Positions 7,488-57,747 of a stretch of DNA of 64,000 nt are shown piece by piece (positions within the stretch are counted from its first letter, which is position 1; each line of letters starts with the position of its first letter). The stretch comes from a bacterium. GTDB lineage: Bacteria > Patescibacteriota > Microgenomatia > JAMCZE01. The translations under genes and the position numbers were made by a program. The notes beneath the pieces were generated by a model. The model made no database searches and was not told where the DNA came from. It saw only the letters and a program-made list of their open reading frames with translations. The stretch is taken from assembly GCA_021836035.1 (NCBI GenBank), contig JAKBJL010000002.1, positions 151,282-215,281 on the forward strand, read 5' to 3'.

Positions 7488-8723
7488 TTAACCAAAATGG
7501 AACAGCGTCATCAGATCTTGGAGATCGAAGCTCACGCTCACCCCCCCTAAATCTGCTAAACGACCGAAAACATTTTGATTACCGGTACTGGATACGCTGG
7601 CCGTAGAATTGGAATCGCCGGTCAAAACCATCACCGGATCAAACATGACCGGTCCGGTGTTAGCCGACGCGGCATTGTCTCCGGTTTGGACATCGGTCCC
7701 CAGAGAGTTTAAAAGATCGGCATAATTGCCTCCTTTTTCTCCACTCCCCTGAAAGACCTCGGCGCTGTTGCCCAGATTGACACTGGCAGAGTTAGCCGAG
7801 CCATCTCCGTTACCGGAAGTCTTCGCGGAAACATCCGCCAGACAACCGCAATCTATTTCGGCGACATTGAAATTTACCCTATTGTCAACCGAAGCAGCGG
7901 AATTAGCGTTTCCGGTCAAAACCAGAACGCTGCCCCCGGTATTACCGCCGGTGTTATTGTCTCCGGACTTGGCATAGGAGCTGACCCGATTAGATACCGC
8001 CGCCATGTTATCCTGAGTGATCAGGTTATCATGAGACAAAATGGTATCAATCGAATTTGTGCTCCCGGAGCCGTTTCCGCTTTCCGTAATATCGACTGAA
8101 CCCGTACTCCCGCCATTATTTCCGCCGATTAAAGCGGCATTGGCGTTAGCATTGGTCGAGACGGTGGACTGGATGTTGGCATCGCCGGTTAATATCCGGG
8201 TGGTCCCGCCGGTATTGTTGCCGGCCGTATTTTCTCCGGTTACCGACCGGGAAGTGACACTGTTTTCCACTTCCGCACGGTTAGTCTGGAACAATTGGTT
8301 TGTATTAGCCTGTTCCAAGCTGGCGCTGTTGGCGCTTCCGGCACCGTTGCCGGAGATAGTGGTACTGCTCGTCCCGTTAGTGCAACAACCAACCGCCGCC
8401 CGATTACCGTTTAAGGTATTGGTTACGGTCGTGTCGATATTAGCATTTCCGGTACTCACCGTTACCTCTCCGCCGGTATTCCCCGAGGCCGTGTTATGCC
8501 CGGTTTGCGCACTATTATCAATAGTATTGGTAACAGTGGCCGAGTTATTCTGTACCGCGGTCGTTGTATTGCTATTCGTCAACGAAGTCGTAGAAGTACT
8601 GCCGGCGCCGTTGCCGGAGATAGTGACACTGGTATCAGCTAAAGCCGCAGCGGGAAGCAGGGTATTAGCTACCAGTAGCCCGGTAGCAAAAACACCCGTT
8701 AATTGCTTTTTCAAAGAAATCAT
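7488..8723 (-). CDS. Secreted Asn/Gly/Thr/Ser-rich tandem-repeat surface protein (411 aa), four ~90-aa repeats; paralogue of 5133-7358
   Basis: Signal peptide MISLKKQLTGVFATGLLVANTLLPAAALA and a strong RBS GGAGAGGGGGTG 8 nt upstream. The four repeats begin ISGNGAGS(T/A)NS, ITESGNGSGSTNS, TSGNGDGSANSA... and each carries NTGG..V.V.TG.AN and a Cys pair (GCC, CGC). Confidence 0.8.
   Translation of the reverse strand: MISLKKQLTGVFATGLLVANTLLPAAALADTSVTISGNGAGSTSTTSLTNSNTTTAVQNNSATVTNTIDNSAQTGHNTASGNTGGEVTVSTGNANIDTTVTNTLNGNRAAVGCCTNGTSSTTISGNGAGSANSASLEQANTNQLFQTNRAEVENSVTSRSVTGENTAGNNTGGTTRILTGDANIQSTVSTNANANAALIGGNNGGSTGSVDITESGNGSGSTNSIDTILSHDNLITQDNMAAVSNRVSSYAKSGDNNTGGNTGGSVLVLTGNANSAASVDNRVNFNVAEIDCGCLADVSAKTSGNGDGSANSASVNLGNSAEVFQGSGEKGGNYADLLNSLGTDVQTGDNAASANTGPVMFDPVMVLTGDSNSTASVSSTGNQNVFGRLADLGGVSVSFDLQDLMTLFHFG
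7491..8636 (-). repeat. Four intragenic tandem coding repeats (~270 nt each); limits approximate
   Basis: Periodicity seen in the translation; the plus-strand ORFs 7768-7977 and 8041-8763 are antisense artefacts. Confidence 0.5.
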
Positions 8724-8959: not shown

Positions 8960-9067
8960 TACCCCAATAGCACTTTTATATAGATGATCATATATATATT
9001 ATGATAGAATTAATAATTATTTTGATACCCTATAGACTAGTAAATTCTTACCGTCTTCTTACTTCAG

Positions 9068-9289
9068 TTATATTGGTGATTCCGTTAAGATCTTCTTGAA
9101 ACTGCCGTTTATTTCCAGGTTGGTTTTTTTAATATGGCGGATGGTAATTTGGGTTATTACTCCGTCCTGAACATAAATTTCCACACTCCCGAAAGATACT
9201 GTCTCCAAAGCTTTGCGTAATTCCTCCAGGGATTCCCCGGTATGCCGGGCCGGGGTTTTTTTAAACTTGCTGCTTAAGGCAGTACTCAT
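9068..9289 (-). CDS. DUF2292 (YezD-like) small protein (73 aa)
   Basis: ...SFGSVEIYVQDGVITQITIRHIKKTNLE resembles the YezD/DUF2292 core (FGSV.I.V.DGKVVQI...K) as I recall it. Confidence 0.4.
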   Translation of the reverse strand: MSTALSSKFKKTPARHTGESLEELRKALETVSFGSVEIYVQDGVITQITIRHIKKTNLEINGSFKKILTESPI

Positions 9290-9290
9290 A

Positions 9291-9911
9291 TTAAAAATTC
9301 AGGGGAATACGCTGCTTTTCCCCGTCTATTTCGCCGATCTGCAAGATAAAATTTTTATCGGTAGTATTTACCGGGAAACCGATCCGGGTATCTTTTGTCG
9401 AGATCGGCTGGATAGTAATGGGATCGTTATGAATATCCGCCGCGTACCATTGGCTTTCGTCACCGTTTACCGCTAAGCGGACATAATCCCGGGTATTCAT
9501 GGTTATCTCCTTGCTTGTATTGTTCACGACATGCAACGAGAGGATAAGAAAAGTCCGGCCCTGAATCGCGGTAGCTTTTTGGCCTTTAACGATAATCTGG
9601 TCGCGCAATTCCGCCGTATCTAAAACATAGCTAACCGTTGCCGCAACGTTTCCTTTGCTGTCCCGGATAGGGAAATCAAAAGAACGGTTAATCTTGGTGG
9701 TAGCTTGGGCTGCAGCAAGATTTACCTGGTCATTTGCGGGCTTTTTGGCGGAGGCGCTTTGAACAATATTCCTGGCCCAAATACCGGCCCCGGCGACAAT
9801 CAAAACCAGGAGAGCAATCGGCAGCGCTTTCCTTAATATCCGGCGTCCGCCGGTTCTGAACCGGACAGTTGCTTTTCCCCCCAGAGGATAATTGCCATTA
9901 TCGGGATTCAT
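9291..9911 (-). CDS. Membrane-anchored extracytoplasmic protein with DUF4352-like beta-sandwich domain (206 aa)
   Basis: N-terminal TM ALPIALLVLIVAGAGIW. C-terminal region ...KGQKATAIQGRTFLILSLHVVNNTSKEITMNTRDYVRLAVNGDESQWYA... fits the DUF4352 pattern. 4-nt overlap with the upstream gene. Confidence 0.45.
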   Translation of the reverse strand: MNPDNGNYPLGGKATVRFRTGGRRILRKALPIALLVLIVAGAGIWARNIVQSASAKKPANDQVNLAAAQATTKINRSFDFPIRDSKGNVAATVSYVLDTAELRDQIIVKGQKATAIQGRTFLILSLHVVNNTSKEITMNTRDYVRLAVNGDESQWYAADIHNDPITIQPISTKDTRIGFPVNTTDKNFILQIGEIDGEKQRIPLNF

Positions 9912-10420
9912 ATGTTCACGCTCGCTCCTCCTCCGCTAGCCTTAGTTATCGAGATGCCAATTGTTACCGGAGCGGCAGCCTCTTTTTGGGAAATCGCCAC
10001 GGAAATGTTCTGCCGACTGTCCGCCCCCACCAGCTTATTCATCACCTTGCCGTTTGCTTTCGTTTGAATAAAAGTTTTGACATTCATATTCAGGGCCGTA
10101 ATTTTTTGCTTGTACCAATCGGTCACGGCGTCGGCGCGATCATTACTGGTGAAGCTCAGGCCGGAAACGCTTTCCCCAACTTGTACTGCGCCGGGATAAC
10201 GCCAGGGACCATAATCCGGTCCGGCAGGATCCGCTGATACCGCCGGAGAAGGCAGAGGCCGAGAAATATTTTTTTCCGGCTTAGGGATTATCAATCCGGG
10301 GATAGGAGCCGGGGAACTTACGGGCGGGAGAACGGGTTTTCTGACGGCAACTGGGGATTGTCCGGTAAGGACGCTTAAAAGGGTGGTTAAAAGAGTGATG
10401 ATTGCCGTAAGAACAGACAT
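9908..10420 (-). CDS. Hypothetical membrane-anchored protein with Pro-rich linker (170 aa)
   Basis: N-terminal TM MSVLTAIITLLTTLLSVLTG, then PVLPPVSSPAPIPGLIIPKPE, then a globular C-terminal domain. ATGA overlap with 9291-9911. Confidence 0.5.
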   Translation of the reverse strand: MSVLTAIITLLTTLLSVLTGQSPVAVRKPVLPPVSSPAPIPGLIIPKPEKNISRPLPSPAVSADPAGPDYGPWRYPGAVQVGESVSGLSFTSNDRADAVTDWYKQKITALNMNVKTFIQTKANGKVMNKLVGADSRQNISVAISQKEAAAPVTIGISITKASGGGASVNI

Positions 10421-10502
10421 TGATAAAGACCTTAGGCCTCTATAGGATTAGCTCTAATAATTGGCTATCCGTGTGTCTATCCCGAAATAAGCGGGCAAGA
10501 AT

Positions 10503-10805
10503 TCAGTAAGTAGGAAGAACCACTTGTTTTCCGGAGATTAGTTTCCCGTTAACCGGAATTTGCAGAGCAAAACCTAAGGCGTTGGCGATCGCTACCCCTA
10601 CCCGCAAACCGGTAAAAGAACCCGGGCCAGTAGCTACCTCGATTTCCGTAATATCCTGCAGGGTAAGATCCTGCATATCCAGTAGCTCTTTAATCATCGG
10701 CAAGACTACCTGCGAGCGCCAAACGGAAGAGTCTTTGACCGTTTCTTTTTCCCCAAGCCATATAATAGTTTTTTGGTTGGAAGAAGTGTCAATAAACAGT
10801 TGCAT
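10503..10805 (-). CDS. tsaB: Mini-TsaB-like protein (N-terminal domain of the tRNA t6A biosynthesis protein TsaB/YeaZ, 100 aa)
   Basis: MQLFIDTSSNQKTIIWLGEK...EIEVATGPGSFTGLRVGVAIANALGFAL carries the TsaB/Kae1-family GPGSFTGLRVG motif. Only ~100 aa against ~230 aa for canonical TsaB. Confidence 0.6.
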   Translation of the reverse strand: MQLFIDTSSNQKTIIWLGEKETVKDSSVWRSQVVLPMIKELLDMQDLTLQDITEIEVATGPGSFTGLRVGVAIANALGFALQIPVNGKLISGKQVVLPTY

Positions 10806-10810
10806 GCTTT

Positions 10811-12808
10811 TTACTTCCCAAAATTGGCAATAACCTGGGACAAATCGAAGATAGAATAATTACTTCCAAAATAATTTAAAACGATTCTTAGGTCATTAAT
10901 GTCTACCTTGCCGTCACCATTAAAATCGCCGCCTAGGGGAGACGGAGACGGCGAGCCCGGATTGGCCACTAAGCTATATAAAGCCGCGACTTCAGCAGGA
11001 TTTAGCGCACGATTATAGATTCTAACTTCATCGACAAAACCATTGTAATGTCGATTATAAGCAAGGTAGGGATGGGTACCGATTTTAAACTGCGCCCCAA
11101 GCGTTTGACTAGGAAGGCCAACCGCCGTCCCGGTTTTTGCTAAGGCGCCGTTAATATATAAGTTATAAATATTATTGGTATAATCATTAACTACTACCAG
11201 ATGCGTCCAGTTCTTCAAATCGTAAGAATAAGAATTAACCCGGCTACCATCACCACCTGATAAACTGATTTCATATCCGTTAGAAGTTGGATCATATATA
11301 AGTTCGTATGAAGCGTTATTATTTGTGCCTCCCCGTGCTTGAGCCAAGATATCCTGCCAGTTACCACCGGTGTCATCTGCTTTAACCCACAAAGAATAAG
11401 AAAAGGTGGGATTAGTAGCGTTAATCATCTGAACGGGTATATTAATATTTTGTCCTGTTCCGTTAAAATAGCCACTATTACCGGAGACACCGACCACTCC
11501 TCCGACAGGGCCGGTACCAGCCGGGCAAGACATACCGTTGTATCCGTTGTTTGAAAAATCTATTACAGTAGGGGTCTGGCAATCATTTATCCACGAACTT
11601 TCATCCATCTTCCAATAACCCGCTAATCCCCGATTAAGATCAACCTGAGCCGGGGTTGGTATAGGCGTAGGACTGGGGTGAATATCATTCGTCCAGGCAT
11701 TTTGAACATTTTTAATAACATTAAAGTTACCTTCAATCGTCGGATCATCATGAATTTGTTGTAATGTCTTACCGAGAAATGAGGTCTCTAAATTAGAAAC
11801 AGCGCTATCTATTTGCGAAGAGCTTGTGCCGATATTATTTTTAAAATCATTAAGGGTCCACGTGCTAAAATTTGTACCGAAAACCGGGTTAACTCCGCCG
11901 ACAAAGACATTGCCGCTAGCCGAAACTCCGGGGAGAGAAGGCAAAGTACTGTTAAGAAAATTTACCGGACCGACCAGGTTGTTGTTGAAAATATAGGAAG
12001 AGGTATAAGGAGGACAATCCGTACCCGTAGAAAAATTGAGAGTTCCCGAATGGTTAGAAATATTCGTACTCCAAAAGATATTTTTGTATGCTTGATGGTT
12101 AAGACCATTCAAGACCAAACTCGCCCAGGAATCAGCGATAAAATTATTACGGATAGTAGTATAGTTTGGCCCATGCCAAAGATGGATACTATATCCTGAA
12201 TTATCAACAAAAATATTCCCATCTATTAAAGTCCCATCAGTTGCCTGCGAAACGGCACAATTATTAATATAAATGGGGTGGTAATATGGAGCACTGCCAT
12301 CAAAAATAAAGCGGTTGTTAATATATTTATTTCTCATATGTGTTCCTTCATTTACCCCACCAAAATAATTAAATAAGGTTAAACCGACTAGCTCCACATC
12401 ATTACCGTGTTGAAAAACATGGTCATATGTGTCTTTTACGGGCGAGCCGAACCAAAGACCCGCTACATGGACAAAACCTCCCACCAGGACATTCGGCGGA
12501 TGCCCTGCTACATCGGTAATAATCGGCCTGGCTCCTGTATCAGCATAAACATACGATCTTGTTGTTGTGCTGGATGGACCAAGGTTTAACCAACCGTTAT
12601 TCACGGTATCAATGGAATAAATTCCGTCTTTCAAAATCAGGGTATCTCCAGGAACCATTTTGGAATTGCCGGTACCAAGATCGTAGGGGTTGTTGCTAGA
12701 GCCATCCCCCGAAGAAGATCCGCTTGGCGAGACAAAATATGTGGCCGCCAATGTCGGTTTAGTTGCCCAAAAAAACAGGCAGATAATAATTAATATAATT
12801 CTTTTCAT
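10811..12808 (-). CDS. Secreted right-handed beta-helix (DUF1565/pectin-lyase-fold) protein with LamG/ConA-like domain and C-terminal dockerin-like module (665 aa)
   Basis: Signal peptide MKRIILIIICLFFWATKPTLAA. DUF1565-like start TYFVSPSGSSSGDGSSNNPYDL...PGDTLILKDGIY. PbH1-like NN.F / NIFVDN repeats. Laminin_G_3-like segment ...WTHLVVVNDYTNNIYNLYINGAL...NGFVDEVRIYNRALNPAEV. C-terminal GDFNGDGKVDINDLRIVLNYFGSNYSIFDLSQVIANFGK. Confidence 0.7.
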   Translation of the reverse strand: MKRIILIIICLFFWATKPTLAATYFVSPSGSSSGDGSSNNPYDLGTGNSKMVPGDTLILKDGIYSIDTVNNGWLNLGPSSTTTRSYVYADTGARPIITDVAGHPPNVLVGGFVHVAGLWFGSPVKDTYDHVFQHGNDVELVGLTLFNYFGGVNEGTHMRNKYINNRFIFDGSAPYYHPIYINNCAVSQATDGTLIDGNIFVDNSGYSIHLWHGPNYTTIRNNFIADSWASLVLNGLNHQAYKNIFWSTNISNHSGTLNFSTGTDCPPYTSSYIFNNNLVGPVNFLNSTLPSLPGVSASGNVFVGGVNPVFGTNFSTWTLNDFKNNIGTSSSQIDSAVSNLETSFLGKTLQQIHDDPTIEGNFNVIKNVQNAWTNDIHPSPTPIPTPAQVDLNRGLAGYWKMDESSWINDCQTPTVIDFSNNGYNGMSCPAGTGPVGGVVGVSGNSGYFNGTGQNINIPVQMINATNPTFSYSLWVKADDTGGNWQDILAQARGGTNNNASYELIYDPTSNGYEISLSGGDGSRVNSYSYDLKNWTHLVVVNDYTNNIYNLYINGALAKTGTAVGLPSQTLGAQFKIGTHPYLAYNRHYNGFVDEVRIYNRALNPAEVAALYSLVANPGSPSPSPLGGDFNGDGKVDINDLRIVLNYFGSNYSIFDLSQVIANFGK

Positions 12809-14100
12809 TTCCCAAAATTAGTAATCACTTTGGATAAATCAAAAATTGTATATGGGGTATCAAAACCTATAAGAGCAATTTTCATATCGTTTATATCTAC
12901 ATAACCGTCTCGATTAAGGTCTCCAGGAATTAAGCCTGCTCCTGCCCAGGCGTCCTGAACAGCTGAAATAATTTTGAAGTTGCTTTCAATCGCTTGGTCG
13001 TCATGGATTTGTTGGAGGGTTTTGCCGGTAAAGGAGTTTTCAATATTGGCAATGACCGTATCCAACTCCGGACCGGAAACTCCTAGTCGGGCGGGAACAT
13101 CGTTTAGGGTTAAAGTCTTTTGATTGTTGCCAAAACCTGGAATATTAACAAAATAATTGTCATCAATAATTACCTGAGGATCATAACTCGTCATCGGAGA
13201 AACCAATCGATTGGCATTGTTTGGGCCTAAAAAATTATGGCGGAAAGTAAAAACATTTTTGCCGTTGTTGGCATCCTGTGGCGGCGGCCAATATTCATTA
13301 TCTGTCGGTAACCAGAGGGCTACATTTTGCCAGCCGCCCGAGCTCCATAAGATATCATCTTGGACACTATTACCTTTGCCCTGAACAACAATACCATAGC
13401 AGACATCACCATAGAAATTATTATGGACGGTGACATAACCAGGATTGTGCCAAAGGTGGGTAGCATAGCCCCCTTCAAAACTCAGAGGCTTTCCGATGTG
13501 GATATTTTTCTCGATTAAAGCACCTTCCCCGGGTTTGGCCATCATATTATTAATATAGATTGAATGGCCCCGGTTATCATGGCCTGAGCGGATAAAACGG
13601 TTGCCGATATATTTGTTTCTCGTACTGCCTCCTTCATTAAGACCGCCAAAATAATTAAAATAGGTATTATTGACTAGCTCAACGTCATTACCGTTTTGGA
13701 TCACGTATTCTGCCGTATCCTTACTAGGCGTCCCGAACCACAAACTTTCCACCCTGGTGAAAGAATTGGTGAAAACATTCGGAGTATGGACGGCAATATC
13801 AGTAATAATTGGTCTCGCATTGATGTCAGCCTTGACAATTGATCTCACTGTGGAACCTGATGGTCCCAAAAACAGCCAACCGCGGTTGACCGTATCTACA
13901 GCGTAGATGCCGTCTTTAAGAATTAAGGTATCCCCCGGTCGCATCCGGGAATTACCGGTCAGTAAATCCCAAGGATTGGACATAGAACCATCGCCCGTTG
14001 AAGAACCGGAAGGAGAAACATAATAGTCAGCGGCAAAGGTTGGGGAAGCAAAGATGCCAAAAACAAAAATAATAGCTAAAAGGAAAAGTATTTTTTTCAT
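12805..14100 (-). CDS. Secreted right-handed beta-helix (DUF1565-like) protein with C-terminal dockerin-like module (431 aa); paralogue of 10811-12808
   Basis: MKKILFLLAIIFVFGIFASPTFAADYYVSPSGSSTGDGSMSNPWDL...PGDTLILKDGIY. C-terminal GDLNRDGYVDINDMKIALIGFDTPYTIFDLSKVITNFGK. ATGA overlap with neighbours. Confidence 0.7.
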   Translation of the reverse strand: MKKILFLLAIIFVFGIFASPTFAADYYVSPSGSSTGDGSMSNPWDLLTGNSRMRPGDTLILKDGIYAVDTVNRGWLFLGPSGSTVRSIVKADINARPIITDIAVHTPNVFTNSFTRVESLWFGTPSKDTAEYVIQNGNDVELVNNTYFNYFGGLNEGGSTRNKYIGNRFIRSGHDNRGHSIYINNMMAKPGEGALIEKNIHIGKPLSFEGGYATHLWHNPGYVTVHNNFYGDVCYGIVVQGKGNSVQDDILWSSGGWQNVALWLPTDNEYWPPPQDANNGKNVFTFRHNFLGPNNANRLVSPMTSYDPQVIIDDNYFVNIPGFGNNQKTLTLNDVPARLGVSGPELDTVIANIENSFTGKTLQQIHDDQAIESNFKIISAVQDAWAGAGLIPGDLNRDGYVDINDMKIALIGFDTPYTIFDLSKVITNFGK

Positions 14101-15494
14101 TTCCCAAAATTAGTAATCACTTTGGATAAATCAAAAATAGAATAGGGATTATTAAAATCGATTAGAACTTTTCTGATATCCATGATATCCACTTTACCGT
14201 CCTGATTCAAATCCCCGGCTAAATTAACAGTTTGAGATATAAAAGCGCCTAAATTCTTACCATCACTGCCAGCATTACTTGCCAAACTACCAGGTAATAA
14301 ACGGAAATCTCCGGCAGCGGCGTTAACAAACAGGGGATCAAAATGCATGGTATGTACCCCCAAAGTATTATTATGCTGGACAAAGTAAGGAGAAATCCCG
14401 TAATTATCAGCCGAAGTAAAATAATCGTCATAGTCGTCGGTATTATACTGAGGATAAGAGTTCATCGAACCGCCAGAATCATAGTCAAGATTATTGCTGC
14501 CATTAAAGACAAACAAATTATTTTTAACGTTATTATAGGCGGCGCCCTCACGAAAATAAAATATTCCCCGGGCGTTGCTGACCGAGGTGTTGTTGAAAAC
14601 CTGGTTGTGGTCGCCGGCGATAATAATTCCACCGGCCCCGTTGCCAAAAGTAATATTTCGTGATAATACCTGCCCGGTGGGATTGCTGTAGGAATGAATG
14701 CCGTAACCGGCATTGTTAAAAATTATATTCCCGTCCACGGTAAAATAACTGGCCGGAACGTAAATCCCGTGGTCGGTGCCCTGGGTTCCGTTTTCAAAAA
14801 CGATATTGCCCTGAATTAGGGCATTTGTTCCACCATGTCCTTCCTCCTTAATCCCACAATGGAGATGATTATAAACGACATTATTAGAAATACGATCTCC
14901 TTGGCCGGCACCATTGAAAAAGATAATACCGACATCACTGTAAGTCTCCTGTGCTGGAGCTCCGGGATATCCCCGATAACCTTCAACAACAAAACCATTG
15001 AACCATACATAGTAAGCGCTGTTCCCCTGGAGGGTAACAATCGGGCCGGCAAGGTAATTATCGGGTGGAAGTATTTTTACTTTTCCTAAGTCACCCGGTG
15101 CGGAACTGATTACCAGAGGATTACTATCACTGGTCCCACCCTTCTGGATTAAGACAGTTTGTTTATAAATTCCGGCAGTGACATAAATAATATCTCCGGC
15201 AGAAGCAACAGCAATTCCTTTATTAATAGTCGCAAAAGGTGATGTTTGAGTTCCAGAGTAATTATCGTTGCCTTTGGCTGATACCCAATAAACTTTTCCC
15301 GCTGTAGGGAAATTTAACTCCGGAACTACCGGGCGGACCAAATTCCAGGTACCACGATCATAAGAAACGGTAATTGTTCTTTGATCAGGAGAGAAGTAAA
15401 TATCAGGGGTCGAATAAGCTTCAGCTATGGGTGTTTTAATTAAAGATAGAAAGGCTGCAAGCAGGAAAACGCCATATTTTAAAATTTGTTTCAC
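14097..15494 (-). CDS. Secreted right-handed beta-helix (DUF1565-like) protein with C-terminal dockerin-like module (~465 aa from GTG start)
   Basis: PbH1-like repeats (GNIVFENG, GNIIFNNAGYGIH, NITFGNGAGG). C-terminal GDLNQDGKVDIMDIRKVLIDFNNPYSIFDLSKVITNFGK. Start placed at GTG 15492-15494 (MKQILKYGVFLLAAFLSLIKTPIAEA signal peptide, matching the paralogues). An ATG at 15545 is the alternative. The ORF-track start at 15683 would overlap tsaE by 70 nt. Confidence 0.65.
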   Translation of the reverse strand: MKQILKYGVFLLAAFLSLIKTPIAEAYSTPDIYFSPDQRTITVSYDRGTWNLVRPVVPELNFPTAGKVYWVSAKGNDNYSGTQTSPFATINKGIAVASAGDIIYVTAGIYKQTVLIQKGGTSDSNPLVISSAPGDLGKVKILPPDNYLAGPIVTLQGNSAYYVWFNGFVVEGYRGYPGAPAQETYSDVGIIFFNGAGQGDRISNNVVYNHLHCGIKEEGHGGTNALIQGNIVFENGTQGTDHGIYVPASYFTVDGNIIFNNAGYGIHSYSNPTGQVLSRNITFGNGAGGIIIAGDHNQVFNNTSVSNARGIFYFREGAAYNNVKNNLFVFNGSNNLDYDSGGSMNSYPQYNTDDYDDYFTSADNYGISPYFVQHNNTLGVHTMHFDPLFVNAAAGDFRLLPGSLASNAGSDGKNLGAFISQTVNLAGDLNQDGKVDIMDIRKVLIDFNNPYSIFDLSKVITNFGK

Positions 15495-15613
15495 GCTCAA
15501 AAATACCCGCAAAATGGCAGGTAAATACCAGCTTAAGATTAACATAAATTTGGTAAATCTAGAATGAGGGGCCCGCTTTTTTGCTTTACGAAACTGGAGA
15601 TACTGCCTGCCGA

Positions 15614-16051
15614 TTATTTCCCGATTCTGGTAATTAATATTTCTCTGGTATTTTCTCCTTCGGTTGTTATTCCAATTTCCCATCTTTTTTCGGGCAAAAA
15701 ACCCTCAATTTTTTCCGGCCACTCAATCAGGACAATATTTTTCGGATCCTGCCAAAGTTCCTCAATACCAACGGCTTTAATATCGTCGACGGAAGTCAAG
15801 CGATATAAATCCACATGCCATAAATAAGCCAATTTAACACAGCGGATAACGGATAGCAGGTAGCGTCTGGTGATAACGAATGTTGGGCTGACAAGCCGGG
15901 ATTTAATTCCTAAACCTTCCGCAACCCCCTGAACAAAAGTAGTTTTACCGACGCCCAGATCACCGTAAAGAGCCACTACTCCTCCGCTTTTAATCTTTCT
16001 GGCAAATTCACTCCCCAATTTCCGGGTTTCCCTGGCCGAGCTGGTTACCAT
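15614..16051 (-). CDS. tsaE: tRNA threonylcarbamoyladenosine biosynthesis ATPase TsaE (YjeE)
   Basis: P-loop GDLGVGKTTFVQG, then SPTF and HVDLYRL motifs typical of TsaE. Confidence 0.8.
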   Translation of the reverse strand: MVTSSARETRKLGSEFARKIKSGGVVALYGDLGVGKTTFVQGVAEGLGIKSRLVSPTFVITRRYLLSVIRCVKLAYLWHVDLYRLTSVDDIKAVGIEELWQDPKNIVLIEWPEKIEGFLPEKRWEIGITTEGENTREILITRIGK

Positions 16052-16117
16052 AGAAATATTTTACTATGAAAAACCTAACTGATCCCAGGCAAGTCAAAGC
16101 AGCCCCAATCAGAACAG

Positions 16118-16486
16118 TTGGTAAGTTTTAGTTTTTGCCGCTGCCGTTTCTACCCCGACAACGCTGACCGTTACCTTCTGCCGCTTCTTTCCCTCGGGGT
16201 ATCTACTCCGACAATTGTTGCTAAATCCTCGCTGTTAGCCGCCACTTTTTCGTCCAATTTTTCTATTTCTGATCCGGTAACGGAAGATTTACCGGTGTGG
16301 GAACGGGCATTGATTTCACCGCTGTCGACATCGGTAATTACTACATTAGCGCATAAATCGGATAGAAAAACCGAAAAGATACCGGTAACCTTAGGCCTTT
16401 TACATTCCCAAATTGCCCACCAAGATTGGTATATCTATAACTTAGCAGGTGTCAACATTGCGGCAGCGATTAAGAGAAAATTTTAA
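16118..16486 (+). CDS. Doubtful ORF (122 aa, TTG start, no RBS) in an otherwise non-coding 430-nt gap
   Basis: The only long frame in the gap. Opposite strand to every neighbour and the translation is featureless. Confidence 0.15.
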   Translation: MVSFSFCRCRFYPDNADRYLLPLLSLGVSTPTIVAKSSLLAATFSSNFSISDPVTEDLPVWERALISPLSTSVITTLAHKSDRKTEKIPVTLGLLHSQIAHQDWYIYNLAGVNIAAAIKRKF

Positions 16487-17691
16487 TTTACGCGGACTAC
16501 ATTAATTACCGAAATATCGCTTAAAGAATATTTAGATTTAAAAGATAAATCATGGCCACTCTCAATATAGGGATCATTCATGATATAGTCATCGCCGTTC
16601 TTAGATTTAAAGACGATAAAATGATCAGGACCGCGGCCGATACCAATAATTACCGGATGCCCAGCTGCTAATTCTTCATCCAGTTTCCCGAAGTCGCGCC
16701 CATAATTTTCGCGACTAAAAGTTACGCCATCAATCTGCCAGGGTTTTAGAAGCATATAAGCTGTATCGGCAAAAAAGGCATCATATGCAGAAGCTACCTG
16801 CGAAGGCTTAACGTGATGACCATAATGACTAAGCACCATAGCCGAAGAGGTTACCAGACAACCGTACTCGGCAAGCGAATCGGCAGAGTGGCCGATCGGC
16901 ATCAGGCCCCACTCGGAATCCCGTTGGTTATAATAACACCCCCAATCATTACAACTGGTTTGACCTGATAAAAGGCTAAAGCCGCCGCGGCTGGTAACGA
17001 AGTTTCTAAACGCTGCCAATTGTGCCTCAGCCTGAGCTAATAATTGCTGATAGCGCGCCTCATCGCTGAGCGTATCATCAAGTAGCTTCTCTTTTTCTCT
17101 TTTTTGCTGTCCCAAGGAAAGGTTATAAGCATCAAGTTGTGCTTTTGCTTCTTCTTTCTTATCCTTCGCCTGCTGCAAATATTCCTTATTAAAATTGTAA
17201 GTTTGTCTTACTATGGTCGTATTTTTTAATATTTCCTGATCATGCTTTTGGACAATTTTAAGGTATTCGATATGAACCACGGCGCTTTCCAGATCGGTGG
17301 TAAAAAACAAAGGTGAGAGCCCTTTATTACTTGCTTCCTTATAATTGCTTACCATACGCGCTATCAAAACCTTCGAGGTTTGCGAGAGCTGGTCTTCTAA
17401 TTTCCCGATTGCTTCTGAGGTAGAAGAGATATTCTCTGTTAGTTTTAATAATTTATCCTTAGTAGTGGTAATTTGAGCTTGAGTTAACTGAATCTGGTTG
17501 TTCAGATAAGAAATACGGTTTGATAATGTTTTTTCTTGGTCTTTGGCAGCAGATATTTTTTGTGTCAGTTCGTCGATCTGTTTCTGACAGCTGTCAGCAT
17601 CGGTACAACTCTGCGCGTAAGTCTCCCCTGCAGCCGTAAAAGTAATTAACGGAAGTAAAGCTAACAAAATTAGCTTTTTAAATAACGCCAT
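16483..17691 (-). CDS. Secreted coiled-coil protein with C-terminal C39-like cysteine peptidase domain. Candidate FtsEX-controlled cell-wall hydrolase/activator (PcsB/EnvC/RipC analogue)
   Basis: Signal peptide MALFKKLILLALLPLITFTAAGETYA. About 200 aa of heptad-rich, Q/K/E/L-rich sequence. C-terminus ...WGLMPIGHSADSLAEYGCLVTSSAMVLSHYGHHV (C39-like CG..S.AMVL.YG) plus a later His (GHPVIIGIGRGPDHFIVF). Directly downstream of ftsX, with a 22-nt overlap. Confidence 0.6.
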   Translation of the reverse strand: MALFKKLILLALLPLITFTAAGETYAQSCTDADSCQKQIDELTQKISAAKDQEKTLSNRISYLNNQIQLTQAQITTTKDKLLKLTENISSTSEAIGKLEDQLSQTSKVLIARMVSNYKEASNKGLSPLFFTTDLESAVVHIEYLKIVQKHDQEILKNTTIVRQTYNFNKEYLQQAKDKKEEAKAQLDAYNLSLGQQKREKEKLLDDTLSDEARYQQLLAQAEAQLAAFRNFVTSRGGFSLLSGQTSCNDWGCYYNQRDSEWGLMPIGHSADSLAEYGCLVTSSAMVLSHYGHHVKPSQVASAYDAFFADTAYMLLKPWQIDGVTFSRENYGRDFGKLDEELAAGHPVIIGIGRGPDHFIVFKSKNGDDYIMNDPYIESGHDLSFKSKYSLSDISVINVVRVN

Positions 17692-56970: not shown

Positions 56971-57747
56971 TTAATTATTTTGGGCAATCCGCGCCCGGAC
57001 AATTAATCTTTTCCAATAAGTCCCAGGCGGTACGCAGGTAACCAGGGCAATATAAGAGTCATCAAAACGCTGTTCTAAAATAGAATAATCATCGGGGTCA
57101 ACCGTCTGCATGTCAAAAACCAGGTATTTGTAAGCGACGCGGTCAGCAAAAATATAAATACTATCACCTTTGTCCAAAGTCGGTAACAGGGAAAATATCG
57201 TCGTATAATTTTTAGGATTATAAAACTGCGGCAGAGCGCTATGGCCAAAAATAATATTGGTACCGGGTATCCCCGGCAGACTGCTGGTTCCCCACCCGAT
57301 CAGGCTCTTTTTTAAATCTTCCCCGCCGAAAGTTACTTCCGCATTCTCAATACGCAATTTCGGAATCGAAAGATTATATGTTATTCCGGCCGACGTAGTA
57401 CTGTTTTGGGAAACCCCGGGATACCAATTACTGGCCCGCAAAAGGTTGTCGCTACTACCCTCCTGTACATTCATCGGCAAACCATTTTCTTCCGCGATCG
57501 CCGGTGAAGCAAAACGCGGTATGGGACTGGCAAAGCGGCTCTGGGGTTGTTTCGGGAGGTATATTATCTGCCATTCAATTAGGGGCCAAATCACATTGCC
57601 TAAAAGCAACACTCCCGCGGAAAACATAATCAGCGAAGCGCTAACCAATAGTGATCGGGGAATTTTCGGCAGAGCCGGAAAACTGACGGTAACAGCGGGA
57701 GCAGTTACCGGCCGACGTTTTAAATAAATGTAGACAAAACTGCCCAT
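56971..57747 (-). CDS. Sortase-family transpeptidase, membrane-anchored
   Basis: N-terminal TM LLVSASLIMFSAGVLLLGNVIW, catalytic His region NIIFGHSA, TLxTC-like motif IALVTCVP, conserved Arg LIVRAR. Confidence 0.7.
   Translation of the reverse strand: MGSFVYIYLKRRPVTAPAVTVSFPALPKIPRSLLVSASLIMFSAGVLLLGNVIWPLIEWQIIYLPKQPQSRFASPIPRFASPAIAEENGLPMNVQEGSSDNLLRASNWYPGVSQNSTTSAGITYNLSIPKLRIENAEVTFGGEDLKKSLIGWGTSSLPGIPGTNIIFGHSALPQFYNPKNYTTIFSLLPTLDKGDSIYIFADRVAYKYLVFDMQTVDPDDYSILEQRFDDSYIALVTCVPPGTYWKRLIVRARIAQNN

Follow-up and report, generated by a model that had tools for sequence, protein, structure and literature searches.

A dockerin-like module with one predicted Ca2+ loop on three secreted beta-helix proteins encoded between tsaE and tsaB in a Microgenomatia genome

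The three genes between tsaE and tsaB

The stretch of DNA analysed here, 64,000 nucleotides of contig JAKBJL010000002.1 (GenBank assembly GCA_021836035.1; Patescibacteriota, Microgenomatia, JAMCZE01) and referred to below as the window, carries between the genes tsaE and tsaB three genes for secreted right-handed beta-helix proteins, P3, P2 and P1, each of which ends in the same short dockerin-like module. The analysis also placed this DNA on contig DAHXMT010000003.1 (236 kb) of NCBI assembly GCA_027371575.1. An earlier note on this DNA, made from the sequence alone, had described three co-oriented genes of this kind at this place, coupled by ATGA stop/start overlaps and all encoding signal peptides, and in these respects it was correct. 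The genes lie on the minus strand and are read in the order tsaE, P3, P2, P1, tsaB; the overlap is present at both the P3/P2 and the P2/P1 junctions, tsaB begins 5 nt past the P1 stop codon and 68 nt separate tsaE from P3. The signal peptides are evident on direct reading of the proteins (MKRIILIIICLFFWATKPTLA before A in P1, MKKILFLLAIIFVFGIFASPTFA before A in P2 and ...GVFLLAAFLSLIKTPIAEA before Y in P3).

P1 and P2 share 52% identity, whereas the identity of P3 to each of them is no more than about 30%, and the possibility that these are three recent duplicates was therefore rejected; the word ‘paralogous’, used in the note, suits P1 and P2 and is loose for P3, which belongs to another beta-helix subfamily within the same superfamily. 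The expected DUF1565-type and beta-helix matches were likewise found for P3, which scores above the Pfam cutoffs for DUF1565 (30.4 bits), NosD (40.4 bits) and Beta_helix (37.3 bits) in hmmscan, but the same program at E<=0.1 gave no beta-helix or PF22842 match for P1 or P2. Precomputed matches to PF22842 (Pel9A-like) are on record for P2 and P3, and none for P1.

An AlphaFold2 (AF2) model of P2, with a predicted local distance difference test score (pLDDT) of 79 and a predicted template modelling score of 0.80, begins with a signal helix, after which come a right-handed beta-helix (residues 25-330), a helical cap (residues 332-386) and, at low confidence, the tail. In this model the beta-helix of the P2/P1 catalytic domain is most similar to structures of polysaccharide lyase family 9 (PL9), so that P2 and P1 are predicted to be closest in fold to PL9, although the sequence identity to the PL9 lyases (Pel9A of Dickeya, PDB 1RU4, and a rhamnogalacturonan lyase, PDB 5OLQ) is only 14%. 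All three proteins would be Sec-exported right-handed beta-helix enzymes of the polysaccharide-lyase type, with a presumed lyase activity on a glycan substrate. P1 contains in addition the LamG/ConA-like domain that the note had proposed, here clearly recognized by PF13385 and probably a carbohydrate-binding module (CBM), which gives P1 the classic layout of catalytic domain, CBM and dockerin.

A pointer to the substrate comes from P0152, the nearest homologue of P2 outside its own genome (41% identity), which has no dockerin tail. Its gene (L018 in our list of loci; JGI 3300069939, contig Ga0619461_12179120, 6491-7771) lies inside a polysaccharide-biosynthesis and export cluster, next to genes for Wzz, DegT, an ABC-2/ABC transporter, PIG-L, two GT4 proteins and Hexapep. 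Because P0152 is encoded within an exopolysaccharide-biosynthesis cluster, the substrate would be a bacterial glycan rather than pectin, and this suggests that the beta-helix subfamily of P2 and P0152 acts on a bacterial surface glycan.

The C-terminal module

A type I dockerin consists of a segment of about 22 residues in tandem, each with an EF-hand-like 12-residue loop followed by an alpha-helix, which gives two Ca2+ loops. The C-terminal module of about 40 residues that the note had recognized in all three proteins is indeed common to them and measures 38 residues from the first Asp of the loop to the last residue of the protein. Its first 22 residues form a complete dockerin repeat 1 (DxNxDGxVDIxD plus helix), with D or N at ligand positions 1, 3, 5, 9 and 12 of the Ca2+ loop in all three tails (DLNQDGKVDIMD, DLNRDGYVDIND and DFNGDGKVDIND). 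A tight N-P-Y-(S/T) turn follows, and then the ‘invariant tail’ IFDLSKVITNFGK. When the tails are aligned with the clade's own two-loop dockerins (GDLNGDGKVDIFDYNLLVANFGK...ADIDKNGKVDLFDYNQLVANFGK; alignment A3), which include the fragment P0001 (PGDLNGDGKVDIFDYNLLVANFGKTGAAGFSPADIDKNGKVDLFDYNQLVANFGK), this last segment falls on the repeat-2 helix IFDYNxLVxNFGK. Relative to the two-loop forms there is a gap of 12-15 residues: the linker is missing together with positions 1-9 of loop 2, and N-P-Y-(T/S) stands in their place, so that of the second repeat only the helix is left.

Since IFDLSKVITNFGK aligns with the repeat-2 helix, the module reads as a dockerin from which the second Ca2+ loop has been deleted, with one Ca2+ site and two helices, and the terminal motif would be the repeat-2 dockerin helix rather than a signal of its own. 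A search of the PDB with a profile of the tails placed dockerins on top, the best being the Cel48 dockerin of B. cellulosolvens (2y3n_B, E=1.4e-11), followed by type I and type II dockerins and the group-2 dockerin of R. flavefaciens (9gvb_B, E=0.0074), with weaker EF-hand proteins last. The proposal in the note of a dockerin-type tail with a single Ca2+ loop is borne out by these matches and by the loop ligands, and the gap in the alignment sets it apart, as the note had said, from the standard cellulosomal dockerin with its two repeats.

The further suggestion that (I/T)FDLSKVITNFGK might be a separate and possibly novel wall-anchoring, S-layer or sorting signal fared less well. C-terminal sorting signals consist of a motif with a transmembrane stretch and a basic tail, or of a beta-sandwich C-terminal domain (CTD) of about 80 residues. 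The three proteins, in contrast, stop at ...VITNFGK, where direct reading shows neither a hydrophobic segment nor a basic tail, and the tail resembles none of the LPXTG/sortase, PEP-CTERM or type IX secretion system (T9SS) CTD types; ends of such types do occur on some cohesin proteins of relatives. The three tails are 63-71% identical to one another and best conserved over the last 13 residues, and they are the only three copies in the window and about 15 kb beyond it.

Spread of the one-loop module

The occurrence of the tail elsewhere was followed by a scan of one genome per species and by a pattern scan of metagenomes, which returned at least 79 loci, many with groundwater-type sample names. 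The family-wide numbers given from here on, for one-loop tails, loci and cohesins, are those among the matches listed and are therefore lower bounds. The tail does extend beyond the three genes of the window, a point the note had left to be checked: at least 87 one-loop tails, at least 69 of them unique, were found in at least 61 loci from metagenome-assembled genomes (MAGs) of the Microgenomates type and from groundwater metagenomes, and 84 of the 86 complete tails stop 0-2 residues before the stop codon. The family consensus is DLNGDGHVNIFDYNLLVSKFGNPYTIFDYNDLVGNFGK, in which N-P-Y-T-I-F-D is near-invariant, although the search pattern itself fixed a few of the positions. A profile built only from the tails of other genomes recovers the three window tails with E=1.6e-13 to 3.5e-12, the next-best open reading frame (ORF) of the window being at 0.15. 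The carriers in the genome scan are deposited as Gottesmanbacteria, Microgenomates, Patescibacteria, one unclassified bacterium and four third-party assemblies. These last (L004, L007, L010 and L011) are MAGs labelled ‘uncultured Gammaproteobacteria’ or ‘Pseudomonadales’ that contain arrays of one-loop dockerins as well as cohesins; the gene content of these loci is like that of the Microgenomates-type ones, so that the MAGs may be mislabelled.

The proteins that carry the tail in relatives are typical dockerin cargo, namely Beta_helix/Pel9A-like proteins (among them P0154, a further Pel9A-like protein), GH5, GH39, GH2, BNR and DUF4832/DUF4874. Tandem genes occur in the window (3) and in L004 (4), L005 (3) and L010 (4), and 42 of the 61 loci have a single tail, many of these contigs being short. 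When 24 tail-bearing relatives (17 one-loop, 7 two-loop) were scanned with Dockerin_1, five matched at E<=0.001, four of which were identified as two-loop, and two one-loop relatives scanned singly gave no match. As the family scores below the Pfam dockerin threshold, it is missed by standard annotation.

Two larger searches added little. The three-tail profile, run in a word-indexed search against 5.8 billion proteins, returned one match, the two-loop fragment P0001, and missed the window's own proteins; an exhaustive HMMER search of 1.84 billion cluster representatives with this profile gave a best 150 dominated by long proteins in which the Ca2+ loop alone (profile positions 2-17) is repeated 8-36 times, in which single full-length matches came only from the three window proteins, and is uninformative on the spread of the tail.

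Cohesin genes beside the tails

Cohesin-domain ORFs are present in 16 of the 32 tail loci of at least 5 kb (48 ORFs in 398 kb), whereas about 167 kb of control sequence yielded none. They lie close to the tail genes, with a median gap of 16 nt and 66 of the 70 gene pairs on the same strand. Adjacent pairs are seen, for example, in L006 (tail gene 8999-10213; cohesins 10742-11761 and 11698-12543) and in L009 (cohesins 11625-12182 and 12137-13081). Eight of the 12 cohesin ORFs checked score above the gathering threshold of PF00963, and a profile made from the relatives' cohesin domains matches only cohesins in the PDB. Taken with the counts of tails, a family of one-loop dockerins with adjacent cohesin genes appears to be common in Microgenomates-type genomes. 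In the literature we found no description of cohesin–dockerin systems in these bacteria, dockerin domains being mentioned in passing only.

The relatives' cohesin proteins begin with a signal or transmembrane segment and contain PT linkers and one stretch that matches the cohesin domain, some of them also Big_13. In several, the C-terminus is a transmembrane or sortase-like hydrophobic anchor (for example ...IPVTGNNWLYITLIVAGLFFIGSGMLIL). In others a short amphipathic helix takes the place of a transmembrane anchor (...NILQSVLNFFRK, ...LDSIQALFSKIFYSGS and ...IYLGWQAIFTQIAKLIFH; Table 1), and there may be two modes of anchoring among them. Of 12 two-loop modules, 7 are on cohesin-bearing proteins; of 87 one-loop modules, only 6 are (raw counts, duplicates included). 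Four small proteins in particular combine one cohesin domain with a two-loop dockerin, and the enzymes encoded in the same four loci (L006, L009, L025 and L084) carry the one-loop form; in this arrangement the small proteins are reminiscent of the adaptor or anchoring scaffoldins of other systems.

The genome of the window encodes two sortases. One is at 56971-57747 (-), beside a 752-residue protein with a weak Baseplate_J match, and the other about 2 kb beyond the window start (L020 1391-8093), beside a 2022-residue SpaA/SdrD-like protein of the pilin type.

Genomic context of the insert

The note had stated that tsaE and tsaB normally sit together, and this is the case in relatives whose TsaE is 52-58% identical to that of the window: in L014, L016 and L017 a short tsaB directly follows tsaE, and in L015 only tsaC lies between them. 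The flanks of the window are matched as well, the downstream block in L014 (proteins of about 170 and 206 residues, DUF2292, and proteins of about 411 and 741 residues) and the upstream block in L015 (RF-1, FtsE, FtsX and a PcsB-like gene). Because tsaE and tsaB adjoin in these relatives, the P1-P3 genes are best read as a lineage-specific insertion into the pair. A functional link of the enzymes to the synthesis of t6A was considered and rejected, relatives with the same flanks being without the insert. The GC content at third codon positions (GC3) is 0.37-0.41 in the inserted genes, and most neighbours have values of 0.47-0.55. Since tsaE (0.42) and the PcsB-like gene (0.39) also have a low GC3, composition argues only weakly for transfer.

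TsaB is usually a two-domain protein of the ASKHA fold, of about 210-230 residues, which works in the TsaBDE complex. The window TsaB covers only positions 2-89 of the 212 of TIGR03725, the N-terminal half, with a score above the cutoff. Nor is its gene a fragment, as the ORF is complete and closes with a clean stop codon. As the TsaB proteins of the relatives are also short (61-101 residues in L014, L016 and L017; 86-101 in L014, L015, L016 and the window), the half-size form appears to be normal for the lineage.

A run of 45 nt, comprising the last 13 tail codons, the ATGA and the next bases, is 100% identical between the P3/P2 and P2/P1 junctions, and the remaining tail DNA of P3 and P2 is identical at 52 of 79 positions (66%). 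Such a pattern points to gene conversion at these boundaries or to a junction left there by duplication; selection at the nucleotide level for translational coupling is another possible cause.

The start of P3 is ambiguous between 15545 and 15494. Counted from its first ATG the ORF would encode 528 residues and run into tsaE; the ATG at 15545, used in the NCBI gene call, leaves an odd extension of 17 residues ahead of the signal peptide, and with the GTG at 15494 the signal peptide, MKQILKYGVFLLAAFLSLIKTPIAEA, becomes more canonical. At 15523-15504, just upstream of this GTG, is a hairpin that resembles a terminator, but such sites are no commoner here than in shuffled sequence. A scan of 9800-16600 for promoters and terminators gave counts not above those of shuffled sequence, and neither supports nor opposes a single transcript. 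No rRNA or tRNA genes were found in the 64-kb window.

A secreted protein of 411 residues is encoded at 7488-8723 (-), with degenerate repeats (SGNGAGS...N.A.V.N......TG.N.A..NTGG...V.TGDAN) and no Pfam match. Its C-terminus, ...VSFDLQDLMTLFHFG, is loosely like the dockerin terminal helix, and an orthologue of 413 residues is present in the conserved block of L014.

Table 1. Positions of the genes and modules of the insert and its flanks, and of selected genes in related loci
Feature	Sequence	Position	Strand	Remarks
tsaE	window	15614-16051	-	145 aa; PF02367 E=2.9e-36; TIGR00150 111.9 bits (cutoff 60.1); upstream flank of insert
P3, secreted right-handed beta-helix protein with one-loop dockerin	window	14097-15545	-	482 aa (NCBI gene call); alternative GTG start 15494
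P3 one-loop dockerin module	window	14100-14219	-	AGDLNQDGKVDIMDIRKVLIDFNNPYSIFDLSKVITNFGK
P2, secreted PL9-like beta-helix protein with helical cap and one-loop dockerin	window	12805-14100	-	431 aa
P2 one-loop dockerin module	window	12808-12927	-	PGDLNRDGYVDINDMKIALIGFDTPYTIFDLSKVITNFGK
P1, secreted beta-helix protein, PT linker, LamG, PS linker, one-loop dockerin	window	10811-12808	-	665 aa
P1 LamG/ConA-like (Laminin_G_3) domain	window	10985-11464	-	residues 449-608; PF13385 E=1.4e-26, 93.8 bits
P1 one-loop dockerin module	window	10814-10933	-	GGDFNGDGKVDINDLRIVLNYFGSNYSIFDLSQVIANFGK; Dockerin_1 19.0 bits (cutoff 22.9)
Short tsaB	window	10503-10805	-	100 aa; TIGR03725 78.8 bits (cutoff 69.3); downstream flank of insert
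45-nt identical run, P3/P2 junction	window	14094-14138	-	P3 tail end, ATGA, first bases of P2
45-nt identical run, P2/P1 junction	window	12802-12846	-	P2 tail end, ATGA, first bases of P1
Short tsaB	L014	6483-6788		
Short tsaB	L015	6975-7265		
Short tsaB	L016	6500-6760		
Cohesin protein with amphipathic-helix end	L009	12137-13081		
Cohesin protein with amphipathic-helix end	L010	9690-10667	-	
Cohesin protein with amphipathic-helix end	L007	154-1197		
Cohesin protein with amphipathic-helix end	L005	8481-9842		
Small protein, one cohesin domain and two-loop dockerin	L006	11698-12543		
Small protein, one cohesin domain and two-loop dockerin	L009	5956-6708		
Small protein, one cohesin domain and two-loop dockerin	L025	7687-8904		
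Small protein, one cohesin domain and two-loop dockerin	L084	547-1269		

Proposed mechanism and alternatives

The mechanism best supported by these observations, and one that we regard as probable, is the Ca2+-dependent docking of the three secreted PL9-like or beta-helix enzymes onto a cohesin anchored to the cell. The P1-P3 genes would probably be co-transcribed, with translational coupling between them, and each enzyme would be exported via Sec; the truncated dockerin would then bind in a Ca2+-dependent manner to a cohesin-domain protein in the cell envelope, and the enzymes would be displayed on the cell surface in the manner of a minimal cellulosome-like system. The binding of Ca2+ and of a cohesin in this organism are both predictions of the scheme.

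Several results weigh against it. A profile made from the relatives' cohesin domains finds no cohesin in some 80 kb, the window plus about 15 kb of flanking sequence (best E=0.94), in agreement with the note as far as the window is concerned; this is why we can only infer the binding of a cohesin in this organism. The neighbouring secreted proteins of 206 and 170 residues are not cohesin-like either (hhalign probability 0.9% and 0.1%, respectively). The tails of P1 and P3 score 19.0 and 13.6 bits with Dockerin_1 (PF00404), below the cutoff of 22.9, and that of P2 gives no match. Structure prediction, which the note had recommended, placed helices where they were expected but at low confidence: the tail modelled alone from a 3-sequence alignment has helices at residues 18-27 and 37-41 with a pLDDT of 66, the P2 model has them at residues 403-411 and 422-428 with a pLDDT <50, and a Foldseek search of the PDB with the tail-alone model gave no meaningful match. 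Finally, the window tails are about 50% identical to the family consensus, compared with a family average of 71%, and the YN...YN positions of the family are replaced in them, so that the cohesin linkage of the relatives may not transfer to the window. A divergent branch of this kind is what would be expected of a lineage-specific binding specificity.

That no cohesin turned up in these 80 kb or so also speaks for another proposal, in which the tail is a signal that anchors or sorts the proteins independently of any cohesin: wall, S-layer or a dedicated sorting machine would be bound by the terminal helix, with the Ca2+ loop serving only to stabilize that helix. The strong conservation of the last 13 residues would suit such a signal, as would the 16 of the 32 loci of at least 5 kb that lack a cohesin, and the amphipathic-helix ends of some of the relatives' cohesin proteins hint at a helix with a role of its own. 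We nevertheless think this unlikely, because ordinary two-loop dockerins have a homologue of the terminal helix in that of their second repeat, direct reading shows neither the transmembrane segment nor the charged tail that mark LPXTG, PEP-CTERM or T9SS signals, and cohesin genes are strongly enriched beside one-loop tails. That cohesin genes adjoin like tails in related genomes, and that truncated single-loop binders of cohesin have already been described (PMC12270676), also counts against a novel signal. The tail is more plausibly read as a trimmed version of a known docking system than as a new sorting signal.

It is similarly improbable that one-loop modules pair with one another tail to tail, in the style of EF-hands, and so join the three co-expressed enzymes in hetero-oligomers, whether or not these share a cohesin. 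Such pairing has a precedent in the group-2 dockerins of R. flavefaciens (RfDoc2), of which two single-loop modules lie antiparallel on one cohesin (PMC12270676); one-loop genes often occur in tandem arrays, and the three window tails are closer to one another than to the family. However, the pairing of modules free of a cohesin is without evidence, most of the loci listed (42 of 61) have a single tail, though on contigs that are often short, and the window module, unlike RfDoc2, keeps both of the helices that contact cohesin (helices 1 and 3), so that one module could fill the cohesin site alone.

We give least credence to the view that the tail is a degenerating remnant of a dockerin, at present without function and kept only through recent duplication; this is very unlikely. 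One Ca2+ loop has been lost, the score has fallen below the Pfam threshold, and the 45-nt run identical in P3 and P2 shows recent exchange of sequence, all of which a decaying remnant would explain. It would not explain why at least 69 distinct sequences across many genomes keep the architecture, N-P-Y-T-I-F-D and the strict C-terminal position, why the tails are 63-71% identical in proteins of which P3 has only about 30% identity to P1 and P2 overall, or why the protein motif is retained where the tail DNA outside the 45-nt run falls to 66%.

The docking of the enzymes on a cell-anchored cohesin can be extended from the window to the group as a whole, and this we offer as a tentative proposal, somewhat less likely to be right than wrong. 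In it, Microgenomates-type bacteria of the candidate phyla radiation (CPR) would have a widespread and undescribed minimal cohesin–dockerin system, in which a dockerin with one Ca2+ site and a hairpin of two helices (DLNGDGxV(D/N)IFDYNLLVSKFGNPYTIFDYNxLVxNFGK) docks 1:1 on cell-anchored proteins in each of which one cohesin domain is detected. The two-loop form would be kept mainly on cohesin-bearing adaptors, the ultrasmall cells would display lyases and glycosidases, and the window enzymes would be a group of divergent specificity.

For the window itself the consequence is more modest, a cassette of three enzyme genes within tsaE-tsaB with no evident bearing on t6A biology. More generally, single-repeat dockerins, earlier a curiosity of one rumen bacterium, now appear as a large natural family in a different and uncultivated phylum, and in a different structural version, with both contact helices kept and one Ca2+ site lost. 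Since this family falls below the Pfam threshold, surface display by cohesin and dockerin is likely to have been under-counted in Microgenomates-type bacteria. If the binding is real, the modules could serve directly as orthogonal docking tags of very small size in designer enzyme complexes. They would also amount to a natural experiment that shows which half of a dockerin can be lost, and would provide a testable picture of glycan-degrading enzymes held at the surface of ultrasmall, host-dependent bacteria.

Comparison with known docking systems

Dockerin-like modules on non-cellulolytic proteins, in organisms without a cellulosome and often with no cohesin nearby, were reportedly surveyed by Peer et al. 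in FEMS Microbiol Lett in 2009; that survey is said to predate the MAGs of the candidate phyla radiation and to include no one-loop N-P-Y-T-I-F-D form.

With the type I dockerins (PF00404; PDB 2Y3N) the window module shares repeat 1 residue for residue, including the ...FGK end of the helix (GDLNGDGVINMADVMILAQSFGK against GDLNQDGKVDIMDIRKVLIDFNN), as well as its C-terminal position after catalytic domain, linker, CBM and linker, and its secreted, polysaccharide-active cargo. It differs in that the second Ca2+ loop and the linker are gone, the module having about 40 residues rather than about 60-70 and scoring below the Pfam threshold. The systems also differ on the side of the partner: no multi-cohesin scaffoldin was seen, and the relatives' cohesin proteins match Pfam Cohesin in a single stretch each.

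The closest parallel is with the group-2 dockerins of R. flavefaciens FD-1, which are C-terminal modules of about 40 residues with one Ca2+ loop, a helix, a connecting loop and a C-terminal helix, and which bind with high affinity to ScaE, a cell-anchored, sortase-linked cohesin (Duarte et al., J Biol Chem 2025, PMC12270676). Only five sequences are known, all from R. flavefaciens, the first structure (PDB 9GVB) was published in 2025, and in the CohScaE-Doc2 complex two of the single-loop dockerins lie antiparallel against each other on one cohesin; some artificially halved dockerins also keep their binding to cohesin (PMC12270676). The window tails have the same length and position and, as predicted, the same order of elements, and like the group-2 modules they appear to derive from a two-repeat dockerin of the same group of organisms. 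In contrast to the five sequences of R. flavefaciens, however, the window form belongs to what the alignments suggest is a large family, with at least 69 unique tails, and it shows no sign of the descent from group-4 dockerins that marks RfDoc2. The two truncations are also different in kind. The second helix of RfDoc2 is the group-4-specific helix 4, so that the module keeps one cohesin-contacting helix and two modules are needed for each cohesin, whereas the second helix of the window module corresponds to the canonical helix 3, that of repeat 2, so that both contact helices would be kept and only the second Ca2+ site lost. Given also the different phylum, the window form and RfDoc2 are almost certainly independent, analogous truncations.

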